A stretch of DNA of 61,468 bases, filler included, from Basidiobolus ranarum (Eukaryota), in assembly GCA_040143965.1 (NCBI GenBank). It is 9 parts of 9 records of this genome, joined end to end, with 100 filler letters (N's around TTAATTAATTAA, not from the genome) between each part and the next. Parts side by side here need not be neighbours in the genome. Positions count along the whole stretch, not along the records: positions 1 to 6,758 come from JASJQH010001252.1; 8 more parts are not named here. The stretch is one strand, 5' to 3'. The notes beneath the pieces were generated by a model. The model searched no databases. It worked only from the letters and a program-made list of their open reading frames with translations, and was not told where the DNA came from. The translations under genes and the position numbers were made by a program. Positions 2,762 to 61,468 of this stretch are shown in pieces; positions within the stretch are counted from its first letter, which is position 1, and every line of letters begins with the position of its first letter.

Positions 2762-2804
2762 ACCAGCCTTGTGTCCGGATATTCTGCAGATCAACTTCCC
2801 CATT

Positions 2805-3440
2805 ATGAGCAACCAACAAAGTTATAAGCGCCTTTCCGTAGACGATGCCATAGTCCTTCTTGTGGATCACCAGTCAGGCTTGATATCCCTAGTTCAAGAT
2901 TTCAGTCCTGATGAATTCAGAAACAATGTACTTGCACTAGCGGATGCTGCTAAGTTCTTCAAGTTGCCCACCATCCTTACGACTAGCTTTGAAAATGGTC
3001 CAAATGGTCTCATCATGCCAGAGTTGACAGAAATCTTCCCAGATGCTCCTTTCATCGCCAGACCGGGGCAGATCAATGCATGGGATAATGAAGACTTCGT
3101 CCAAGCCATCAAAAAAACTGGTCGTAAGCAGTTAATCATAGCCGGTGTGGTTACTGATGTATGCGTAGCATTCCCCACTCTCTCAGCGTTGAAGGAGGGC
3201 TATGAGGTATTTGTGGTAACCGACGCGTCAGGAACTTTTAACAAGACAGCTCGGGATGCTGCTTGGTCAAGAATGGAACAGGCTGGTGCTCAGTTGATGA
3301 ACTGGTTTGCAGTTTGCTGTGAACTACACCGTGACTGGAGAAATGATGCCGAAGGCTTAGCAGCAATCCTATCCAATCATCTGCCCGCTTACAAAAATCT
3401 TATTACCAGCTACAATGCAGTCCAATCCAAAAATAAATAG
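2805..3440 (+). CDS. ycaC: YcaC-like isochorismatase-family cysteine hydrolase, intronless
   Basis: VLLVDHQSGL, LPTILTTSFENGPNG, RPGQINAWDNEDF, IAGVVTDVCVAFP and CELHRDWRND follow E. coli YcaC along its length. The likely start is the ATG at 2805, not the TTG at 2769. Confidence 0.93.
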   Translation: MSNQQSYKRLSVDDAIVLLVDHQSGLISLVQDFSPDEFRNNVLALADAAKFFKLPTILTTSFENGPNGLIMPELTEIFPDAPFIARPGQINAWDNEDFVQAIKKTGRKQLIIAGVVTDVCVAFPTLSALKEGYEVFVVTDASGTFNKTARDAAWSRMEQAGAQLMNWFAVCCELHRDWRNDAEGLAAILSNHLPAYKNLITSYNAVQSKNK

Positions 3441-3574
3441 GGCCTGTACATCAAAATGGTTAAGTTTCAGCATCTTGTTTAACTTTTCCTTGTTTGTTTG
3501 GAATAAAAAAGTGCAATTCAACCATGATTTGATATTTTTACTTTTCTTCAAGCTAAGCTTAAGTACAGTGTGTA

Positions 3575-3598
3575 CTAACCTAACCCTAACCCTAACCC
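3575..3598 (+). repeat. Interstitial telomeric tract (CCCTAA)n
   Basis: CTAACC TAACCC TAACCC TAACCC read directly. Confidence 0.85.
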
Positions 3599-3767
3599 GC
3601 AGACCTCATTCCGAGTACTAGTGAAATATTCAGTTCAATGCTAGAGAACACCTACGAGTCAAATAATGGTATAATTTGATGTGGCATAAATGACGAGATA
3701 AAATTCCTAAGTGTACAGAAATACTCATACACCTACCGAGACTCACAATTCACTACGATTCATGACT

Positions 3768-3821
3768 CTGCTAAGATTTACGACTCTCATAAATCTACTG
3801 AGATTCACGATTCTCACAAGT
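3768..3821 (+). repeat. Degenerate 27-bp tandem repeat (2 copies, plus partial copies near 3733 and 3886)
   Basis: CTGCTAAGATTTACGACTCTCATAAAT / CTACTGAGATTCACGATTCTCACAAGT; GAGACTCAC recurs. Confidence 0.65.
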
Positions 3822-3911
3822 CTTCCATCACTCACATATCCGCCAAGTCTTTGGAAATTCCCAGAATATCAGGCCTACAGAGACTCACGTCCGGTAAGAG
3901 TGTACTTTTCC

Positions 3912-3929
3912 TTAGGGTTACGGTTAGGG
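3912..3929 (+). repeat. Interstitial telomeric tract (TTAGGG)n, inverted relative to 3575-3598
   Basis: TTAGGG TTACGG TTAGGG read directly. Confidence 0.75.
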
Positions 3930-5511
3930 ATATTGCTTGATAAATATCTCAATATTGTCTAGCAGTTAGTGTAGCCACACCAGTACAGGTTGTCTATCGT
4001 CAAGCATCGATTACAATCGCCGAATTTACTTTTTGTCTGTATCTGGGATATTTTGTAACTTTAAGTTGCGGCGCAAATTTACTTTTTTGATTTATTCTTC
4101 CCAACCGATATTACTCGTCAAGATCACGAAGAACTTTACAAGCATTTGGAGAGAAACTATTTGTCGAGAAATGGGATAACTCACGCGATATTACTACCTT
4201 CAGAATGGGGTTAATTTACCAGGCTTAAGTAAACCAAGATCATTGATGGAGGCACCCAATTCAACATCACTTCAAAATATGTTACTTCAGAATACTTGGA
4301 CATTTCAAAGAGTTTGATATCAACCCGGTTACTGGAAGCTAAAGTAGGAAATTCTGTATACTACCGAAAATATTACACAGTACCAAGTACAAAGGTTGTA
4401 TGAAGCTTCGGGTAGCAGTAAAGCTTTGGCTCACATGGAAGATCTAGCAATAGTTGAACTGACTTTAAGTAGAAGACTAGCATTGGGGTATTTACAAGAA
4501 GATGAACCCTGAGAAAGGAGGTTTCCAAGCGATAATCTAACGACTAATAGAATCATACCGAAAGTCAAAAATGCTCTCTAGAGTAACATGGTTCGATGCA
4601 GATACAGGGTTAGTATATATCAGATATTCCCCTCCGAATTTCGACAAGAATTTAAGCTACTCGATGGAAAAAGCGAAAAATAGCAAAAGGAAAAGGTGGA
4701 CTCAAAGTGGGTATATGTCGTGTGAAGCCATAGATATTGAGCGTTTATGATCAACAATTCATGGACAGTTCCTCCAAATAAATGTAGTTCAGCTTTTTTT
4801 CATTTACTGTTACTATCCCAATATCAACCTCACTTCGTGGTAGCTTACACATCAGACAGGAACATGTCGACCAAATTACACATGCTTCCTCATCAAGAGA
4901 GCATGTGTCGAATATCGCAGGCAAAAGGAAACCATTTGAGCTAGATTCCTCTTGATTGATTATAATCACTAATTGCATTGGTTAAGGTTAAATTATCTGC
5001 CATTACTCCCAAATTTTATGCCACTATTCCCTGAACAGATAGTCAGCAATTTATTAACCTCGAGTTACTGATTGATTAGGATATGAAGTCATGTCATCCT
5101 CATCCGAAGCAAAATTTTCTTAGTCAACGAGCCTCTCTCCCTTATAACCAAATTTAAATCTCGATAAACATCTGGTTTGGTTGCTAAGCCACTTTACTGC
5201 AGATTTCCATTCAACATTTGCCTCCTTGATTGTAGCATCTCCTAGTGATATGTATACACGAATGTCTAAAAGATGACTCTCACTGTAATTCTTATTTTCT
5301 CCGTAGTGAATGTTCCTCATTGTAGCACTCTTAAAGCATTTATCCAGAGTTTGTTGCAAATGGAGTTCTATCCAATAACCAACAGATCTTTTCAGCAACA
5401 CTTTACAATCAAAACCATCTATAGGTAAGAATGCCATAGCTCCTTGGCATTGTGGCAATATTGGCAATCATGTAAAGAGTCAATAGCAGAGTGTGTGCTT
5501 CATCACACGCA

Positions 5512-6758: not shown

Positions 6759-6858
6759 NNNNNNNNNNNNNNNNNNNNNNNNNNNNNNNNNNNNNNNNNN
6801 NNTTAATTAATTAANNNNNNNNNNNNNNNNNNNNNNNNNNNNNNNNNNNNNNNNNNNN
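6759..6858. other. Artificial contig spacer N44-TTAATTAATTAA-N44 (also at 13609-13708, 20453-20552, 27297-27396, 34140-34239, 40982-41081, 47818-47917, 54645-54744)
   Basis: Identical 100-nt linker with stops in all six frames occurs eight times, separating contigs of decreasing length. Confidence 0.99.
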
Positions 6859-9810: not shown

Positions 9811-9883
9811 GGCCCTGTAGCTCAGTGGAAAGAGTGTCTCCCTCCGGAGGAGAAAGTCGTGGGTTCGACCCCCACCCGGGTCG
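9811..9883 (+). tRNA. tRNA-Arg(CCG), intronless
   Basis: 73-nt cloverleaf: acceptor GGCCCTG/CCGGGTC, D stem GCTC/GAGT, anticodon stem TCTCC/GGAGA with loop CT-CCG-GA (anticodon 9844-9846), T arm GTGGG-TTCGACC-CCCAC. A T5 Pol III terminator follows at 9890-9894. Confidence 0.93.
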
Positions 9884-13708: not shown

Positions 13709-16700
13709 ATATCAGTTAGACACTTACAACCTTTCTCACTATTCTCTCAAAACTTCTCCAAATCACCTCAAATTTTCACCCATGCTTAACAGGTATGTTT
13801 GTTATGACCTAAGCACAACCAATAGTCATATTGCATGGTAAACTATAAATAAGACATACTAAACTCAATAAAACTTGAGTGTCTAGTACACATATCTAAA
13901 TCATGTCAAAAACACTCGTAGGTCCTCTCAACACTTTTATCAGATCATATACCACAGGGTAGATGTTAAAGGGATGTCCACCAAGTCTACTACCACATAT
14001 TTTCATCCTCAGAGAAGTCTGTTGGTGAGGATTTTCACCTTTGGAAGTTTGTGGTGAAAATGATGCTAGAAGCTATGAATCTTAGGTGGGCTGTAATAGA
14101 AGAAGAAATAAAACCCCAGAAGCTATCCTTGCCTTTTACAAGATGTAGAGGAAAGCACTCTCTACACTTTGTCTTCATCTCAGGGACTCTTAATTGAGGC
14201 ACATACATTAAGCAGAGATGTCTAAGCTGCTTGGGAAACACTCAAGGGACTCAATGAGCCTTAACATCTGGCTAATAGGTTAAGTCTTGGACAACATTAT
14301 TTGCATTTCAGACAAGTTCTGATGATTCAATGGCTAATCAATTAAACAAGATTAAAACTATGGCAGACCAGCCATCATCTGCTGGAGCACCTCTCAATGA
14401 AGATGACTTAGTCATGGCACTATTTGGGAGCCTACCAGACAAGTTTGGAATCCTCATAATTGGCCTAGATTCAACACCAGAGCCATTCACAATTGAATAT
14501 GTGGGTGCCTGTCCTTTGAATGATGAAGTAATGATATCTAATGTTCAGAATAATAATGCATATCAGGCTTTTTTGGAGTTGTAAAATGTCCATTAGGCTA
14601 CAATAATGGTGCTTATAGTAGAAAATCAACCATCTACAAGTATTGCAAGAAACCATGCCATTTATTCAAAGATAGCAGAAAAAGGAATTTTACCCAAAAG
14701 CTTAAATAGGAACAAGAATATCAAGTTAGAACTGATAGAGATTGATTATTGGTGTCTGCCCTATCAATAACCACTAAGGAGGACTTAGATACAAATAATA
14801 TTGATTCAGGAGCTTTGCAGCATATGGCAAACAATAGGATTGGTTTTCCAACTTATAACCTGTCCACACAAGAAAAGTCTACTGAGGTGATGTTGATGCA
14901 CTTGATGCAGTTTCATATGGCACAGTTGTGCTCAGTTTAAACCAAAATTCAGCCACAACATCAGTCAATTTGGATAATGTACTCTATGCACTAAATACAT
15001 CCAAGAATCTGCTTGCAGATAGCTAGGCAACAGCTGAAGAACTAAAATTGTGCTCAGCAAGGTTTTGAGCAATTTTGTAAATCAGAATGATACCAAATTG
15101 ACTACTGGGATCAATACTCAAACATTATACCAGTGTGCAATCAAGAAATTGCATTCTGAGCATGCGAACTGAGCCAAAACCCATTCAATAGGCAGTAATT
15201 GTGGCATAGAAGATTAGGCCACATTGAGGAGCAAAAACTAACCCAAATTATCCAAGATCAGCTAGTTTCAAGCTTAGAAACTGATGATATTACCAAATTG
15301 GATCTGTATGAAGGTTGCATATTTGAAAAATATCACAGACAGCCACTTTCCAGCTCTACATAGATTAATTTTCCCAGAATTCTGGCCTGATTTGTTTGTA
15401 CCTGTGTAGGGCCATGAAAAACGTCTCACTACATGGCAAAAGGTACCTTATGGCATTGATGGATGACCAAATAGGATATACTTTGTTGCTCTTTCCAAAG
15501 TCACAGTCTGAAGCTTTAATCACAAGCAAGCAATATACAGCCATGGTAGAGAAAAAGTCAGCTCAAAAAAGAAGGGTAATTAGGAGTAAAAATGGTGGTA
15601 AACACTGCTCTAAATACTGCTTCTTTTTGTTTTAAACATGGTTTTAAAAACAAATTACTGTAATTTATACTCAATAGCAAAATGGAGTGGCAGAATATGC
15701 CAATAGGACAAAAGTGGATATGGAACAATTAATGTGCCTCATCAACAGTTAGATTACTAATATTTAGCTTAATCTATCCCCTCTGCAATCTAAATCAAAA
15801 CAGATGCCCTACAAGATGGCTACAAAATTTTACTCCATTTGAAGCCCTGTTAGTATCAAAACCAAGAGTGGATCATTTCAGGATCTTTGGTAGCATGGCA
15901 TATTGCCCAATTTCAGTTCAAAAATGCTCTAAATCAGAGCCCAAAAGTCGAAAATGCATACTATACTGGATGTCAGACCTACTGACTATTCATACCAAAA
16001 TACTAAACTTCATTTTGTGCAGAGATGTGCTGTTTGAACAGAAAGCAAACTTTCACCTCAAATTACAGTTCTGGATACAGAAAACACAATTGGCACTATT
16101 CAGGAAGTGTCTGACAAATTAACAGTTGTAACTGATCCCAATTCTATCAATGTTCAGCCCCATTTATATCAGATTATGATTCTGAACATGGGGAAGCATC
16201 CAGAAGGGGCTATAAACAAGGCAACTGGAGGAACACTTGCAATGATGATATCCAGGCTTATGCTGTATCCTGTGGCAAGCCAAAGACTCCAGTTTGTACT
16301 CTGGAGTGCCCATAATTAAAATCAGGGGAAAGACAATGTCTGACAGTCCGCTTATTTTGGGAATATAAGTTGTAGGTTTTAAGTCTTTTACCAATGTAAA
16401 GAAAGCTGATAGGTTGCACATAGATCTACAAAGTCAAAACTAAGCTGAGGGAACCATAGAAAGCTACATAGCAAGGTGAGTAACAAAAGGTTATTTCCAG
16501 ACTCCAGGAGTAAATTTAAACAAACCTCTGCTCCAGCAGCTAAATTCAGCTCCATCAAAGCAATCTTGAAACTCACAGCAGTCCATGCCCATGATTTACA
16601 TCATATGGACATAAAAACAGCCTTTCTGAATGAAAATCCAGGACAAGAGATCTATATGCACCAACCAGATGGATATGCTGAGCCAATGCACCCTGATATG

Positions 16701-17400
16701 GTGTGTAAATTGCACAATATGCTATATGAGCTGAGGTAAGCCACCAGGGCATGGTACAACAAGATAGAGAAGAATTTGGAATCACTGGAACTCCAAAAAT
16801 GCACACCAGAACACAATTCCACAACAAAAAGCCTGAAATTAGACCCTTATTGTGGTACTATATGTGGCTAACTAGATTAAAGAAACAACTACTCTTGAAG
16901 CACTTAATCAAAGAAAAAGCAGCTCATCAATCTAATTGCAGTTGACTGATAGGGGTGAACTAAGTTATTTCCTTGGAATGCATAAAAAGCAAGATAAACC
17001 AGGTTTGATAACCATGTTGAGTCAGTCCAGATACATCACAAACATCCTAAAATGCTTTGACCTAGAGAATAGCAAGCCTGTGGCAACACCAGTGGATACC
17101 TGGATGAAATTAATCAAAATTTCATCTGATTTGGCTAAAATAACCCAAATCACAGCTATGAGTTCCCTTATCAATCCATGGTGGGTAGTTTAATGTATAC
17201 AATGGTGGAACACCTGCAGACATTGCTGTGGCAGTGGGAACTGTCAGCCAATATCTCAAAAATCCAGGATCTGAGTGCAAAACTGCAGTAAAACAGACAC
17301 TGAGGTATTGGAGAGGGACTGTAGATCAATTTTGCAAATATTCTGACACTCTTGATGCACAAAATATGAAGGCTACAGTGATGTTAACTGGGGAAGAAAC
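13709..17400 (+). mobile_element. Degenerate Ty1/copia LTR retrotransposon, family A, copy 1 (partial 5' LTR 13709-13942; gag, PR, IN, RT, start of RH)
   Basis: gag FHLWKF and LFGSLPDKF, protease IDSGALQHM, integrase QNGVAE-like and DHFRIFGS, RT HHMDIKTAFLN and ELSYFLGM, RH GYSDVNW; many stops and frameshifts; copia domain order. Confidence 0.92.
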
Positions 17401-29634: not shown

Positions 29635-31475
29635 TGTTAAAGTATTTGGGAGCCTGTTGGAAGTGGTTTGGAGAATTAGGGAAATTGGTGTTTTTCACTT
29701 GTTGATTTATCGAGTAGAAAGTTGACATTTATAGTTTTGTCAAGATATAAGCAAACTAACGTGTAGAAAGTGCTAAGGAAGGTCCCAGGAACATGTGGGC
29801 AAAATTTGGGGCTTCTAGCACATGTTTGAAAAATCCAAACATTGGATAACTTCTGAGTTGGTAAAAATTTTTAAAGTAAACTCCAATTAAGAATAATAGG
29901 CTATATCTTAGTGAGATATAAGATAACTAAATACTAAGCTATATAAGACTCTGTAGATGTTTAGGAAATGCTATTTTCAACCATCTCCCTCAACTACATA
30001 GTCATATAAACCAATTCTAAGAATGGTCTAAATTTCTCAAATTACCACCTAGCTACTGGTTTGATTACTATATCTGCAATCATATATTTTGCAGATCAAT
30101 AATTAAATTCAATAAACTGATTTTCTATAGTCTCTCAAATAAAATGATGTATAGTACCTACATGATTGCTTCTATTATGAAATATGGGATTTCTAGCTAA
30201 TTTGATATAACTTTGATTGTCTTGAAATATTGTAGTTGGTTATTTTGAGCATAGTCCAGATCCATTACAAGTTTTCTTAATCATATTGCTTCTGTTGTTG
30301 CTTTATAGGCATTCTTGTATTCAGCTTCCATTGTTAAAGTGCCACAGTAGGTTATTTCTTTGAATTCCAAGACATAGTACTATTACAGCAAAGAGATAAG
30401 TATTCTTTTGTAGATCTCCTGCCTTTACTATCTCTTCCCCAATTTGCATCTTGTTAGATCAAATTTTGATCTAAAATATATATGTTTTAAACACAGATCC
30501 ATTGTACTTTTCAACTATCTGAAAATTAGCTTAACTACTATGACTTGGTCAGGCCCATAATTTTGAAGAAACTGGCACATGACTCCTGCAGAATGTACAA
30601 TATCTGGCCATGATCAACCATGATATACATATAACCAGAAGCTGTAGATTTATAAGGAGATTGCTGGGCTTTATTCAAGTTCAAGAACTACTGATTTGAG
30701 GCATTTTAAGTTAAGATTTTTCTTCATTGGGATAGATACTGGACTCCATTCTTCCATTTTCAGCTTCTTTTGTATATCTAAGATATATTTAGACTAGTTT
30801 AAAGTTATTGTTTTAGTAGTTCTATCTATCTCAACTTGGATTTCAAGATAGTACATCAGTTTACGAAGATCAGTAATTTAGAATTTGGGAGATAACCTGG
30901 ATTTGGTCTTCTCCAAAGTCTTCAAGTCATTGTTTGCTCTGATAAGGTCATCTACATATAAGGCTAATAAAACTGAGTTTGTCTTATCTGGCCTGAAGTA
31001 GATACTATAGTCAGTATTACTCTTTTGGAATTTGAGTGTTTCCATAACAGCATCTATGTTCCTATTCCAAGCTCTCAGAGATTGTTTTAAGCCATAGAGT
31101 GTTTTGTGAAGTCTGAACTTTTTTAGGGTTGTCTGGGTCCAAGAATCCATCTGGCTGGTCCATATAGATCTCCTCAGCAAGCTCACCATTCAAAAAGCAG
31201 TTTTAACATCCATTTGATATATAATAAACTGATATTTAGCTGAAATTGCCAAAATCAATCTGATTGAATTAAACTTTGCTACAGGAGCAAAAGTTTCTGT
31301 ATAATCTATTCCTAGTGTGTGGGAATAGCCTTTGGCAACTAATGTAGCCTTGTACCTTTCTATATTGCCATCAGAGTTATATTTAGCTTTAAACATCCAT
31401 TGGCAACCAATTGATTTTCTATCATCAGGTAAGTTGGTTAAAATCCAAGTTTGATTATCAATCAAAGCCCCAAGA
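29635..31475 (-). mobile_element. Degenerate Ty1/copia, family B: RT, RNase H, PPT and 3' LTR (LTR 29635-29982)
   Basis: [57 protein letters not shown]; purine tract GAGGGAGAT precedes the LTR on the minus strand; LTR matches 54013-54342. Confidence 0.92.
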
Positions 31476-31479
31476 TGCA

Positions 31480-34139
31480 TCCAGAAGCTCTTTCCGATTT
31501 CAGATATTTGCCAAGTATGATCGCAAAGACCCGCTCATCATGATCTATCCATGTATGACTTTGAAAATTAGCGCCCCTCTGGAAATCGAAAATCTGTTGC
31601 CGTACGATTTCAACTACAATATCATCGACAGATCGGACGATGTTTCGATCTCTGGCTTTCTTGGAAGAGGGGATATTCGCTCGATGCATACCTTTCAATT
31701 GGGACAACTGTTACATTTGAATATAGAGATCGGAGATGCTGGGTTTGCATATAGTGAGTTTGTGGTTATTGGCTCTAATGACCTAGTGCAAAATCCGATT
31801 CAAGACACCATTTCACTAGCCAACCCTGAGGGAACTAAGCTTAGTCTTTGTATCAATTACTTCGAAATTCCAGAGTCTGGGGGAGCCTGCCGGGTTTCGA
31901 TATATAGTCCCCTCTTAATAATCAACAAGACTGGACTAGACATTTATTTAAGAACAAATAACGATGAAGTGAACGCTATATATGCTGGTAGCGAGGACGC
32001 ACCATTGAATAATAGGCCTCTTCCGTATATGTACTCACCACATAACTCTCAGCCTAGAAATAAGGCCTCCATCAAAGTATCGGACTCCGAGTGGAGTAAG
32101 CCAATGAACTTCGAGGCCATAGGGAGTGAAACATCCGCCATTATACCAATGTCTGAACGCTCAGACGAAATTCATCTAGGCATGAGTGTAGATCAAGGCA
32201 GAGGAAAATACCGCCTTACAAGAGTCATAACCTTTACTCCCCGGTTTATTCTCAAAAACAACATGAGAGAAAAGATTCTTCTGAGAGAACCTGGCTCTGT
32301 TGTCAGTATTCCTCTGAAGTCTAAACACAAAGCGCCACTACATTTTGTGCGCCAAGGAGATGAGAAGCGGTTGATGATTAATTTCCCCGAAACCAATAAG
32401 GAATGGTCAGCTCCGTTTAACATTCAAGATGTTGGGAAAACTTTTATTAAAATACGCAAGTCTGGAATTCGACGTGATCTAGTCAGAGTAGACATTCATC
32501 TCGAAGGCCCTACCATTTTCATTCTTTTCAAAAAAGAAGAGGGAAAATGGCCATTCCGAATCGAAAACGAATCGGGTGTCACGGTCCTGCTCTCTCAACC
32601 AATTGCTCAGCCCCGCGAGGCATCTTCTACCCAGCCTAGCTCTGCGTTTGAAAAAACAAAACAGATCCGATACAAATTGAGTTCCGGAGACACGATGGCA
32701 TACTCCTGGGACTATCCTGCCAACAAGCAGAAATCCCTGGTGCTTCATGTCAATGGGTATGAGAGAGAGATTACGCTATGTGAAATCGGCCCTCTTATGC
32801 CTTTGAATTATAAAACTATCGATGGAGCCGGTATTATGGCGATAGATATAGTAGCTGAGGGACCTATAATAGTGGTGCACTTGTCTAAATATGATCAGTC
32901 AGAGAGTATCTACAAGCCTGCAACTTCGAGCTCGACGAACAATTCACTTCAGGATACCGATTTTGAAATCATTGATATGGATTCAGTAACTACTTTCTCT
33001 CTGAAAATTAAATTAGAGGGGATCGGGATATCGTTCGTAAATAGACACGTCCAGGAAATAATTTACTCAACTTTCCGTGGAATCGAACTGAACTACAATG
33101 ACTCCACATTCCAAACATCAATCAATTTCATGATCAAGTGGCTCCAGATAGACAATCAACTCTATGGAGGATTGAGACCGATCATTCTATACCCTACACT
33201 AAACTCGAAGCACGCTAAAGAAGTGGAAATTAAGCCTACTTTCCGAGCAGCAGTTGTGAAGGCCAAGGATACATCTCACGGTGTAGAGTGGTACAAATAT
33301 ATTACTGTTTGGCTACAGGAGGCTTCCCTTGATATTGACGAGGATTTCTTAATGACTCTGCTGGATTTCAGCAAATTCAATGTACCAGGATGGGGATTCG
33401 AAAACCAAGGGTAGTGTAGTCGTCTTTCGTTTATTTTATACATTTGTGAGGCTTTATTGAGATCTTATCCAGGTATATCGGTGATGAGAGCATGAACATT
33501 CCAGAGCCTGCTTTGACGGAAGGCGATACTCAGCTCTACTTCGAAGTGATTCATATTCAGCCTTTAAAAATCAACCTTTCTTTTTCCAGAACGGAAGTCA
33601 TCAATCAAGGAAAAAATACGTATCCTTTTACATATATTTTGTTCGAAGATATATCCACTCCTCTTATTCTTAACTCTTGCATCAAGTCCTCGATCCTATA
33701 ACCCATTAATGTACATAGTCAACGTACTCACAATGACTATTGGAAACATCAATGTATTCTCTCTGCAATATTTGACTTTGAAGATATTCTATTAACATTC
33801 TTTCTTAGGCTGCACCAATCAAGCTAAACGCACTAGTGATGCATAACGTGATGGTTACCTATCCTGTATTGATTGATCGCTTTAGTAAGCATTACTCGCA
33901 AGAAGTTTTCTATCAGGTTGCTTTTCATTTTCCTTCAACCACACCAATTGCACACTATGATCCTTTACTTACTGAAATGATGTTCTAGGTCCATAAAGTT
34001 GTAGGGTCTGCGGATTTCTTGGGGAATCCAGTGAAATTATTTAATACTGTGAGCTCTGGAGTTATTGATTTCTTTTACGAGCCTTATCAATGATTTATCA
34101 TGAACGATAGAGCACAAGATGTAGGAATTGGGCTCGCTA
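31480..34139 (+). pseudogene. VPS13: VPS13 (VAB/SHR-binding to C-terminal region), 5'-truncated, with an in-frame TGA; exons ~31480-33410, 33473-33619, 33687-33753, 33809-33916, 33989 to contig end
   Basis: [86 protein letters not shown]; four GT-AG introns keep frame; TGA at 34091-34093. Confidence 0.85.
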
Positions 34140-58303: not shown

Positions 58304-59913
58304 TGTTGAAAATAGGTAAATAGCAACTCATAGTTTAGTAGTTAGTTTTTAACATTCTGATTATTTAGCACTCAATTCTGTCATTCAAAAATGTGTGTTT
58401 ATTGCCCTAATTGATACAAATAGCAATTGGATCAGTTTTACAACTTTCACTATTTCCTCAAAACCTCTGCAAATCATCTCATATTTTAACCCATGCTTAA
58501 CAGGCATGTTTGTTAAAATCTAAGCACATCTAATAGTCCCATCTCATAGTAATCTTTAAATAGGATATATTCAATTCAATAAAACTTCAGTGTCAAATTC
58601 ACCAATTCAAATCTTGTCTGTAACACTTCCAAGTGCCCTGAACACTTTAATCAGGTTATGAGCCCCAAGCTAGCTCTTAAAGGAATGTCTACCAGTACTA
58701 TTACCAATGTTTTTGCATGCACAGAGTAGTATAATGGTAAAAATATTCACCTTTGGAAGTTCAAGCTACAAATGGTGCTAGAAGACAAGCACCTATGGAG
58801 ACTTGTTAATGGCAAATAAATAGAGCCAATGGGACCATCAAAAGCTATCCTTGCCTTTCACAAGATGCAGAGGAAAGCACTCTCCACATTTTGTCTACAT
58901 CTCAGAGACTCCCAATTGAGGCACATACAATCAGCTAAAAATGAGCAAAATGCTTGGGAAACACTCAAGAGACTATGTTAGAGTAAAAGTCTGGCTAATA
59001 TGGTATCTCTTAGGCAAAAAATATTCTCAATGCGCAAGAATTCTGATAATTCCATATACATCAGATAGAAACTGTGGCAGATCAGCTCTCTACCATTGGG
59101 TTGCATCTAAATGAAGATGAATTAGTCATGACTCTACTAGGGAGCCTGCCAGATGAGTTTGGGAAACCCATCATTGGCCTGGATATATGATCAGAGCTAT
59201 TAGCAATGGAATATGTTGGTGCTAGGCTTTTAAATGAGGAATTAAGGAGATCTAATTCTCAGCAAAACTTTGCAGAACAGGTATCTTTTGGAGCTGCAAA
59301 ACATCTAACAGGCCTCAATAATGGTCCCCCTGACAAGAAATCAATCATCTGCAAGTATTGCCAGAAACCTGGCCATTTAATCAAAGATTGCTGAAAAAGA
59401 ATATTGGCCATAAGCTAAAATCAGAATACGTTAATCAACTAAGCACTGATAGGATTCATCAACATGTGTCTGCCCTATCAGTAACCACTAAAGAAGACTC
59501 ATAAATGTGATACATTGATTCAGGAGCTTCCCAGCATATGTCAAACAAGAATGATTGATTTTCCTGCCTAAAATTAACTCACACAAGAAAAGTCCACTCA
59601 GGTGATAACTACACACTAGATGCAGTTGGTAAAAGCACCTCTAAATGAAGAGGACTTAGTCATGACTCTACTACAGAGCCTGCCAGACAAGTTTGGTAAA
59701 TTCATAATTGGCCTAAAAGCAAGATCAGAGCCATCAATAATTAAATATGTTGATGTGAGGCTTTTGAATGAAGAATTAAGGAGATCTATCTGTAAACAAA
59801 ATAATGCAGAGTAGGCATTTTTTGGAGCTGTAAAATGTCCAACAGGCTTTGATAATGGCACACCTAACAGAAAATCAATCATCTGCAAGTATTGCAAGAC
59901 ACCAGGCTATTTA
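58304..59913 (+). mobile_element. Ty1/copia family A copy 4: 5' LTR 58304-58653, PBS, gag, PR, then a repeated gag end from about 59635
   Basis: TGTTG...TCA LTR, HLWKFKLQMVLEDKHLW, CKYCQKPGHLIKDC, IDSGASQHMS; NEEDLVMTLL..LPDKF appears a second time. Confidence 0.93.
58654..58665 (+). promoter_or_regulatory. Primer-binding site complementary to the anticodon arm of initiator tRNA-Met (half-tRNA priming)
   Basis: GGTTATGAGCCC directly after the LTR CA is the reverse complement of GGGCTCATAACC. Confidence 0.85.
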
Positions 59914-61047
59914 TAATTCCAGGCTTTCTTCACATTTAGTGGGGAGTATGATTTGTATGGGATGTATAGGTACTTATGAAATACTTTTAGATGTACATCT
60001 GTAGATATGTGATTATCAGTGGTTTTTGAAATGATTATGTCCATGAAGTCAAAGAGAAAGGTTGGACTACCTAATCCAGCTTAATAGTGTTGTTCTCCTC
60101 ATTGAAGTGTTGCATAAATGTACTTAGTTTGGTCATACCATGTTGCCAGATAAAGAAAATATCATCCAGATATGATTTGTAGATCTCTGGCCAGATGGGT
60201 GTTTTTTTCTTGATCCGGTCTTACAGAAAGTGCATGTAAAGGTTACATGAAGTGCCCATTGCTGTCCCTTCAATTTGCTCATATGTAAGACCTTCAAATT
60301 CAAAATAGGTATTATACATGATAATGCACAGACTTTCTGTTAAAGCTTCCAATATGTGTGGGAGATTTGTATAGTGTTTTCTAATATATGTGCTGACTTT
60401 GCTGACTCCTTTATTAGTTTTGATGTAGGTGTACAAGATTTGTACATTGGCTTTAACAGAGAGTTGTGTGTGTGCCATAGTTGTTGTTTCTTGGATTTTG
60501 ATTAATTCTGTGGAGTTATGTAATATAATAGGAAGCATGTTACAAATTGGTTGAAGCCAGTGGGAGTACCATATGGATATACCATTTGTTATCCAGCTTT
60601 AGGATGGTACTGTAGGTCTGCTTTTGATGGGTTGCTTATGTAATTTAGGTAAGAGGTAGAATGTGGGTAATCTCCATTCCATGAGTTTAGTGGTAATGAA
60701 TTTAGGCTCTTTGATTTTGAAGCTTTTTCTGTAATATCTTAGCAAATTGTGGATATTTTCAGTGATTTTGTCAAAGAGGCATATCTTTACAATATATGTG
60801 TTGGTATCCTGTAATTGACAAAGGACTTCATTAATGTACCGGCATTTGTCCATTATTGTTAGGCCTAGGTTTTCACCACTAGGTTAAATAATTACGTTTT
60901 TGCTTTTTATGAATTGTTTCAGATTAATCAATTCCAACACTTCATTATTATGTTTAATTGAAATTTTTATTGTATCCAACAAATTTATTACATTTGTTTC
61001 CAAGAATTATATGCCTTGTTCCAGTTGAGATGATCCAGTAATTAGTT
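59914..61047 (-). mobile_element. Penelope-like element (PLE) reverse transcriptase, degenerate and truncated at both ends
   Basis: Minus strand: NVII*PSGENLGLTIMDK (decayed DKNLG motif), PTFYLLPKLHK..SRPTV, YFEFEG..YEQIEGTAMGT, YLDDIFFIW (60161-60172), FMDIII..KYLYIPYKSYSP..VKKAW. Confidence 0.9.
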
Positions 61048-61063
61048 GGGTTAGGGTTAGGGT
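61048..61063 (+). repeat. Telomeric tract capping the PLE 5' truncation
   Basis: GGGTTAGGGTTAGGGT, a 16-nt perfect match preceded by TTAGTT. Confidence 0.8.
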
Positions 61064-61468
61064 GTTTTTTTCTGCGCTATCAGTAACCACTAAAAAAGAT
61101 TAACAAACATGGTACATTGCTTCAGGAGCTTCCCAGCATATGTCAAACAGGAAAAATTGGTTCTCCAGCTTAACACCAATTCAAACAAGGAAAGTCTACT
61201 TAGGTGATGACTACATACTAGATGCAGTTTGCAAAGGCCCAGTTGTACCTAATTTAGACCAAAGTTCAGAAATGCCATCTGCAACATTGGATGATGTACT
61301 CCATGTGCTAAATATAGCCATGAATCTACTCTCAGTAAGCCAAGCAACAACTCAAGGACTAAGTTTCATGGTCAGTAAGGCTGGATGCACTTTCACTGAT
61401 CAGAACAATAGCAATTTAGCTACAGGGATCAAAACTCAAAACTTGTGCAAGCTGGAAAGCAACAAATT
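61064..61468 (+). mobile_element. Family A copia resumes (protease region)
   Basis: SALSVTT..WYIASGASQHMSN..VYLGDD..LDDVLHVLNIAMNLLSVSQ; colinear with 59466-59635 and 18570-18970. Confidence 0.9.

Follow-up and report, generated by a model that had tools for sequence, protein, structure and literature searches.

A 313-bp sequence between two outward-facing telomere-type tracts in the genome of Basidiobolus ranarum

Gene context of the locus

We analysed a stretch of 61,468 nucleotides of Basidiobolus ranarum DNA, referred to below as the window. It contains a segment, 3575-3929, in which two short telomere-type tracts lie at the two ends of a non-coding interior. The segment is situated between convergent genes. 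Immediately upstream is an intronless isochorismatase gene, whose stop codon lies 134 bp before the left tract; an earlier note on this DNA had placed the segment just 3' of a ycaC-like gene, and the domain assignment agrees with that. The features discussed here are listed in Table 1. Between positions 6759 and 54744 the window also contains sixteen runs of 44 N, arranged in pairs approximately 6.84 kb apart, which are non-biological; one such pair cuts a GAPDH-like frame near 6811-6858.

Table 1. Positions of the segment, its gene neighbour and the comparator insert in the window
Feature	Position	Strand	Description
Isochorismatase (ycaC-like) gene	2769-3440	+	Intronless; Pfam Isochorismatase, E 3.6e-26
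Candidate direct repeat, left copy	3567-3576	+	AGTGTGTACT; 10 bp, next to the left tract and extending 2 nt into it
Left telomere-type tract	3575-3598	G-strand on minus strand	Reads C TAACC TAACCC TAACCC TAACCC
Interior	3599-3911		313 bp, non-coding, unique in the window, no homologue found
Degenerate 27-bp tandem repeat	3760-3823	+	2.4 copies, 78% matches (Tandem Repeats Finder)
Candidate direct repeat, right copy	3897-3906	+	AGAGTGTACT; 5 nt before the right tract
Right telomere-type tract	3912-3929	+ (G-strand on plus strand)	TTAGGG TTACGG TTAGGG; one substitution (TTACGG)
RT-like fragment	59914-61072	-	1.16 kb, frameshifted frames; pasted into a copia element
Third telomere-type tract	61048-61062	+	GGGTTAGGGTTAGGG; C-strand cap at the truncated 5' end of the RT fragment (its sense strand)

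The isochorismatase protein was compared with metagenome contigs, and 545 of the 599 candidate stretches encode a relative. The best 80 of these 545 have at most 80% identity. At the DNA level the gene is approximately 73-76% identical to genes on large, ORF-dense metagenome contigs with high GC content. Nine contigs were examined among the best 80; all are ORF-dense and of the prokaryote type, with GC content of 51-68%. No fungal orthologue of the locus was found among the best 80 metagenome relatives. Judging from these similarities, the fungus seems to have obtained the gene from a bacterium; the GC content of the gene is now 45.5%. A study on horizontal gene transfer (HGT) in Basidiobolus exists (PMC7466969). 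The similarity to the best 80 metagenome loci is confined to 2763-3464, and we therefore rejected the possibility that the interior of the segment is a bacterial flank transferred together with the gene.

Telomere-type tracts

The C-rich tract on the left and the G-rich tract on the right have the polarity of the ends of a linear chromosome. Approximately four CCCTAA units on the left and three TTAGGG units on the right had been claimed earlier, and the sequence agrees with this. The left tract has period 6 and 4.2 copies according to Tandem Repeats Finder. Alternatively, its first letters, CTAA, can be assigned to the flank as a possible microhomology, which leaves a perfect 20-nt tract at 3579-3598. 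The two tracts are alike in length and decay, with 20 perfect nucleotides on the left and one substitution in 18 nt on the right. This fits telomerase-mediated interstitial insertion, which places exact hexamers at the time of insertion.

The tracts form an imperfect inverted repeat. Its arms, 3579-3595 and 3912-3928, are 17 nt long and 94% complementary; counted from the boundaries 3583 and 3930, the inverted match covers 13 of 15 positions. The inverted repeat reported in the earlier note thus stands. Whether the irregular unit occupies the same register in both arms, as was also claimed, is a matter of choice between two alignments that fit equally well. Moreover, the inverted repeat arises trivially, because any two opposed telomere tracts form one.

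Sequences of this type are rare in the window. The pattern TTAGGGTTAGGG, with at most one mismatch allowed, has five matches at three places in the 61-kb window, namely the two tracts and 61048-61062, compared with 0.14 expected, and none of 100 shuffles reached five matches. The 15-mer GGGTTAGGGTTAGGG, again with at most one mismatch, is found at the same three places. Single hexamers occur at background frequency (TTAGGG, 14 observed and 13.0 expected; CCCTAA, 11 observed and 12.4 expected). Because the window has tracts at no more than three places and no excess of single hexamers, two of them separated by just 313 bp are unlikely to be unrelated. Given one other tract per 61 kb, the chance that a tract has an independent neighbour within 400 bp is approximately 1.3%. 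One pair in four would face outwards, which reduces this estimate, derived from the tract count in the window, to approximately 0.3% per tract. An isolated GGGTTAGGG of 1.5 units at 878-886 on the plus strand is not followed by any further repeat and is probably due to chance.

One possibility is that neither tract has any connection with the other or with an insertion, both having arisen by chance or serving as sites for a TTAGGG-binding factor, that is, as boundary or terminator motifs between convergent genes. The location between convergent genes is consistent with this. Over many windows some such pairs would be expected genome-wide if tracts are common; a few could exist in a large genome, and more if insertions cluster. 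Within the window, however, a chance outward-facing pair is unlikely, since the tracts are far above the shuffle expectation. Short telomeric tracts are thus not so common here that an inverted pair within 400 bp should be expected by chance, a concern raised in the earlier note. Furthermore, the third tract clearly belongs to a transposon insertion (see below), and no other gene boundary in the window has a tract of this kind. We consider an unrelated pair very improbable.

Flanking repeats and junctions

No clear target site duplication (TSD) surrounds the segment, as had been noted earlier: the only repeat around the whole segment is the 2-bp TA at 3581-82 and 3931-32. A longer candidate was also found. 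The direct repeat AGTGTGTACT / AGAGTGTACT has one mismatch in 10 bp and brackets 3577-3896, which is only a part of the segment. If it were a TSD, it would bracket an insert on the minus strand. Exact 7-mer repeats were observed in approximately 13% of shuffles with a search space of similar size, a figure that gives a rough background and not a p-value; the shuffle script scored the observed repeat as only 5, because the repeat overlaps the left tract by 2 nt. These repeats of 7-10 bp flank the sub-segment, and not the inverted repeats. We also considered the structure that remains when the putative nested insert is removed. A hairpin with a tail was rejected, as its folding energy has z of -0.56, 129 of 500 shuffles fold as well, and it ranks 679th among 3300 control joins.

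The inner junctions of the tracts read CTGC|GGG and TTCC|TTAGGG, and neither has clear homology to the repeat that could seed telomerase. The 23-nt pattern at the left junction has no exact match in viral contigs and none in metagenome contigs.

Another possibility is that the segment is a MITE of approximately 346-355 bp, with telomere-like terminal inverted repeats CCCTAACCSTAACCC, that was moved by a transposase encoded elsewhere. The size is typical, the inverted ends agree over 15-17 nt with one mismatch, and the third tract ends in the same 15-mer. However, terminal inverted repeats are mimicked by any pair of opposed telomere tracts, and the left tract extends 9 nt beyond the common 15-mer. 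The target duplication of PIF/Harbinger transposons is the 3-bp TWA; no such duplication is present here, since the 3-bp flanks of the shared 15-mer, TAA (3581-83) and ATA (3930-32), are unequal, and the third tract is followed by TGT. The best TSD is just the TA mentioned above. The whole segment folds in an ordinary way (z of -1.04 relative to shuffles), and a foldback or otherwise structured element was rejected for this reason. Nor does the 61-kb window contain a second copy. Thus, nothing in the window supports a non-autonomous element with telomere-like termini, and we regard it as unlikely. A precedent for the polarity is provided by the telomere-bearing elements (TBE) of ciliates, whose inverted repeats start with the C-strand telomere repeat of the host and face outwards in the same "mini-chromosome" fashion (Chen and Landweber 2016, PMC4724952).

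Interior of the segment

The interior consists of two parts. Positions 3599-3729 are A-rich with GC content of 35%, and positions 3730-3911 are C-rich with GC content of 43% and GC skew of -0.34. The skew of the right part is in the top 5% of windows of the same size, and the flanks are unlike it in this respect. The overall GC content is ordinary, as 25% of 313-bp windows have an equal or higher value. The right part contains the degenerate tandem repeat, in accordance with the 27-bp repeats mentioned in the earlier note, and the related motif CCTAC(C/A)GAGACTCAC has copies at 3732 and 3874 and a less exact one at 3794. A peptide that had been quoted from this region falls in a frame open over 3680-3937, which has 86 codons and lacks an ATG. 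Another frame is open over 3711-3962.

No second copy of the interior was found in the 61-kb window by blastn with word size 7, the only matches being those of the two tracts with each other and with the third tract. The 86-codon frame has no match among 1.84 billion protein representatives and belongs to no Pfam family, and tblastx of the interior against the window produced nothing significant (best E 0.037). A captured gene fragment is thus not supported by these searches. Comparison of the interior with plasmid and phage collections gave no match, and an origin from either is likewise unsupported.

The only match to an RNA family in Rfam was at chance level (SCARNA7, 14.8 bits compared with a gathering score of 65), and no tRNA, 5S or 7SL match was found at E up to 1. 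Hammerhead ribozymes from Rfam had no match at E up to 1 in 3000-4800 and none at the gathering score in the window; the hammerhead core pattern has four matches in the window, none of them within 3441-4100. Accordingly, these searches gave no support to an RNA gene, a telomerase RNA or a hammerhead. The single Rfam match at gathering score in the window is a tRNA gene at 9811-9883 on the plus strand. The three 100-mers adjacent to the left, right and third tracts fold no better than shuffles (z of +1.83, -0.57 and +0.48), and no shared module was observed when the sequences adjoining the three tracts were aligned.

These data bear on the possibility that the interior is native, and that two nearby breaks, simultaneous or separate in time, were each sealed after telomerase had added a few repeats, the two scars facing outwards by accident. 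For mammals, repair of this kind has been described (Nergadze et al. 2007, PMC2246262). The ordinary overall composition of the interior and the lack of a TSD are consistent with it. On the other hand, it needs two rare events within 313 bp, for which the estimate of 0.3% per tract applies, and the skewed right half of the interior does not resemble the flanks. Two independent scars are thus improbable.

A capped RT-like fragment in a copia element

The third tract belongs to a different insert at the end of the window. An RT-like fragment is pasted there into a copia element, in the minus orientation. When the second copia copy is aligned to the contiguous first one, the similarity is interrupted between about 59913 and 61073. 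Approximately 90 bp of copia were lost at the insertion, and a T-rich filler of 8-10 nt is present. The sense strand of the fragment starts with CCCTAACCCTAACCC, which lies within a truncated reading frame. Seen on the plus strand, 2.5 G-strand repeats are present at the 3' end of the fragment, and only this end is capped.

The frames of the fragment encode, on the minus strand, the motifs ..IMDK.., FYLLPKLHK....RPTVPS, AMGTS and YLDDIFFIW, from which we tentatively take it to be a Penelope-like reverse transcriptase; in these motifs it presumably resembles the Athena/Coprina class. Pfam searches of the fragment gave nothing at E up to 0.1, and there were no matches in word-index protein searches and none among PDB sequences. 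Its neighbours in the ESM Atlas are eukaryotic hypothetical proteins, which serve as leads only. In one comparison 2 of 30 clusters have RVT_1 on 19% of their members, and in another 27 of 30 have DUF8422, mostly in flatworms and rotifers.

The copia element itself is represented by two truncated copies arranged head to tail at 58820-61468 on the plus strand, with gag, zinc knuckle and Pol beta-barrel domains. The first copy covers gag through the Pol beta-barrel region and is cut short near 59625; from there the sequence continues with the middle part of the second gag. Decayed copia remnants with gag, SH3-like domain and RVT_2 were found at 14279-17190 (plus strand) and 30881-31534 (minus strand). 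The latter lies directly against the start of a long VPS13-type reading frame, 31393-33411.

As an RT fragment with a telomere-type end has been patched into copia, breaks in this genome are repaired with fragments that end in telomere-type repeats. At the same time, the tract on this fragment is the only other CCCTAAC-type end in the window, and it adjoins an RT-like fragment with a target deletion, and not a transposase or a clean TSD. This is a further argument against the MITE.

Origin of the segment

The segment may consist of two retroelement-derived ends in opposite orientation, which could stem from nested events, from neighbouring events, or from priming at the two sides of a single break. 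Two versions can be considered. In the first, 3577-3896 would be a 5'-truncated retro-insert of 320 bp on the minus strand, with a telomere-type tail and a 10-bp TSD, located 5 bp from an older 18-nt tract. In the second, reverse transcription would have started from both ends of a break, with RNAs that terminate in UUAGGG repeats as templates, and the resulting cDNAs would have met near 3730. Indeed, the character of the interior changes near this position, the candidate direct repeat abuts the left tract, and the outer left junction has CTAA in common with the repeat. Either tract could be the short-repeat 3' tail of an insert on its own strand. In Magnaporthe, interstitial tracts of at least three repeats are fragile according to Rahnama et al. 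2020 (PMC7367193), and a first tract could have attracted a second event.

However, no common module adjoins the two tracts or the third tract. The tract-adjacent sequences do not fold better than shuffles, and no hammerhead, Pol III head or other RNA family was found. The interior lacks coding for a reverse transcriptase or an endonuclease, and a direct repeat of this length is expected in approximately 13% of shuffles with a similar search space, as described above. A pair of retroelement ends, which the earlier note did not propose, is rather unlikely; its probability is comparable to that of a captured fragment and to that of a telomere-ended element.

We tentatively prefer, at less than even odds, the first alternative of the earlier note, a captured linear fragment, both 3' ends of which would have carried 3-4 telomerase-type repeats when it was joined into a break. 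A free linear fragment of approximately 313 bp, either DNA or a retroelement cDNA, would have existed. At each 3' end it would have received 3-4 G-strand telomere repeats, most simply by the action of telomerase; this number would be too small to act as a telomere. End joining would then have inserted the capped fragment at a break between the convergent genes, downstream of the isochorismatase gene. If both 3' ends of one fragment carry G-strand repeats, a left CCCTAA tract and a right TTAGGG tract necessarily result, which is the observed arrangement. We infer, accordingly with this scheme, that the segment is an insertion, that its tracts were made by telomerase, and that both stem from one event.

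Several observations argue for the capture. The tracts are rare, they lie only 313 bp apart, and they are similar in length and decay. The insert in copia offers an analogue within the same window, with one capped end, loss of copia sequence and filler. The lack of a TSD beyond TA, of a second copy in the window and of a homologue in the searches fits a one-off insert. Four observations argue against the capture. The inner junctions have no clear seed homology for telomerase, the 10-bp direct repeat 3567-3576 / 3897-3906 is left unexplained, the two-part interior better suits two joined pieces, and the comparator insert 59914-61072 has only one telomere-type end. On balance, the segment is most likely a one-off break-repair scar rather than a member of a mobile family.

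A special case of the captured fragment would be the relic of a free telomerase-capped linear DNA, that is, of a very small mini-chromosome or episome, integrated beside a bacterial-type gene. This is quite improbable. If true, the segment would be a footprint of the way in which an HGT-rich fungus stabilises and integrates loose or foreign DNA: its ends are capped, it persists, and it is joined into a break.

Implications

The meaning of the locus differs between the readings. If the segment is a capped fragment, the telomerase of an early-diverging fungus acts on loose DNA ends in the nucleus, and the capped pieces are pasted into chromosomes. Capping and re-joining have already been seen in transformation experiments and in scars of breaks in mammals. 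As the segment adjoins a bacterial-type gene, it could also be relevant to the entry of foreign DNA into Basidiobolus genomes. If the segment is an element with telomere-repeat ends and many copies, fungi would have an equivalent of the ciliate telomere-bearing elements. If it consists of two opposed retroelement tails, it is ordinary. A limited search of the literature on Basidiobolus telomeres, fungal interstitial telomeric sequences and telomere addition to transforming DNA yielded no natural fungal locus with the two-ended geometry.

Comparison with known systems

The TBE elements, as described by Chen and Landweber 2016 (PMC4724952), are multi-copy Tc1/mariner elements with three ORFs, inverted repeats of at least 78 bp and an ANT target duplication. 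In contrast, the segment has an 86-codon frame without a homologue, similarity of its ends over 15-17 nt, flanks other than ANT, and one known copy.

Telomere addition to foreign linear DNA with formation of mini-chromosomes has been described in Acanthamoeba, and Histoplasma and Fusarium are cited in the same report (10.1101/2024.10.29.620921). In the Acanthamoeba molecules described there, a non-telomeric fragment gains repeats at both ends and can also integrate. However, these molecules are tens of kb long and have functional telomeres, whereas here 313 bp are accompanied by 3-4 repeats per end.

The Penelope-like elements Athena and Coprina, which are EN-deficient, carry telomeric repeats in reverse complement at the 3' end and reside at the ends of chromosomes, according to Craig et al. 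2021 (PMC8557442) and to Gladyshev and Arkhipova 2007 as cited there. Coprina occurs in fungi, and in the EN-deficient elements a hammerhead ribozyme motif lies beside the 3' telomeric repeats (PMC8557442). Unlike in these elements, neither a hammerhead nor a reverse transcriptase was found in or next to 3575-3929, and a single element of this class does not fit the opposed orientation of the tracts.

The MoTeR relics of Magnaporthe oryzae (Rahnama et al. 2020, PMC7367193) are truncated pieces of telomere-associated retroelements which bear short telomere tracts and were brought into internal positions by end joining. In two relics of that account TTAGGG is present both at the 3' end and at the 5' truncation boundary, and the relics resemble the RT-like fragment of the window with its capped 5' end. 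Given the mechanism of attachment, MoTeR-type tracts presumably have the same orientation at both ends, whereas the tracts of the segment are opposed. In addition, the relics are retroelement pieces, and the interior of the segment has no homology to retroelements.

Short mammalian interstitial telomeric sequences arise by insertion of telomeric repeats at double-strand breaks, with participation of telomerase, in the data of Nergadze et al. 2007 with target deletion in 50% of cases and with added sequence in 17% (PMC2246262). As here, a few exact or nearly exact hexamers are found at an internal site. Deletions of the target and extra sequences are frequent at the loci in that study, similarly to the comparator 59914-61072, which corresponds to the classes "insertion with deletion" and "insertion with added sequence". 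The mammalian loci described there have one tract in one orientation, and the segment has two outward-facing tracts around 313 bp. Among these systems, the segment behaves most like a break-repair scar of the kind represented by interstitial telomeric sequences or MoTeR relics, but it is set apart from them by a pair of tracts that face outwards on either side of unique DNA.
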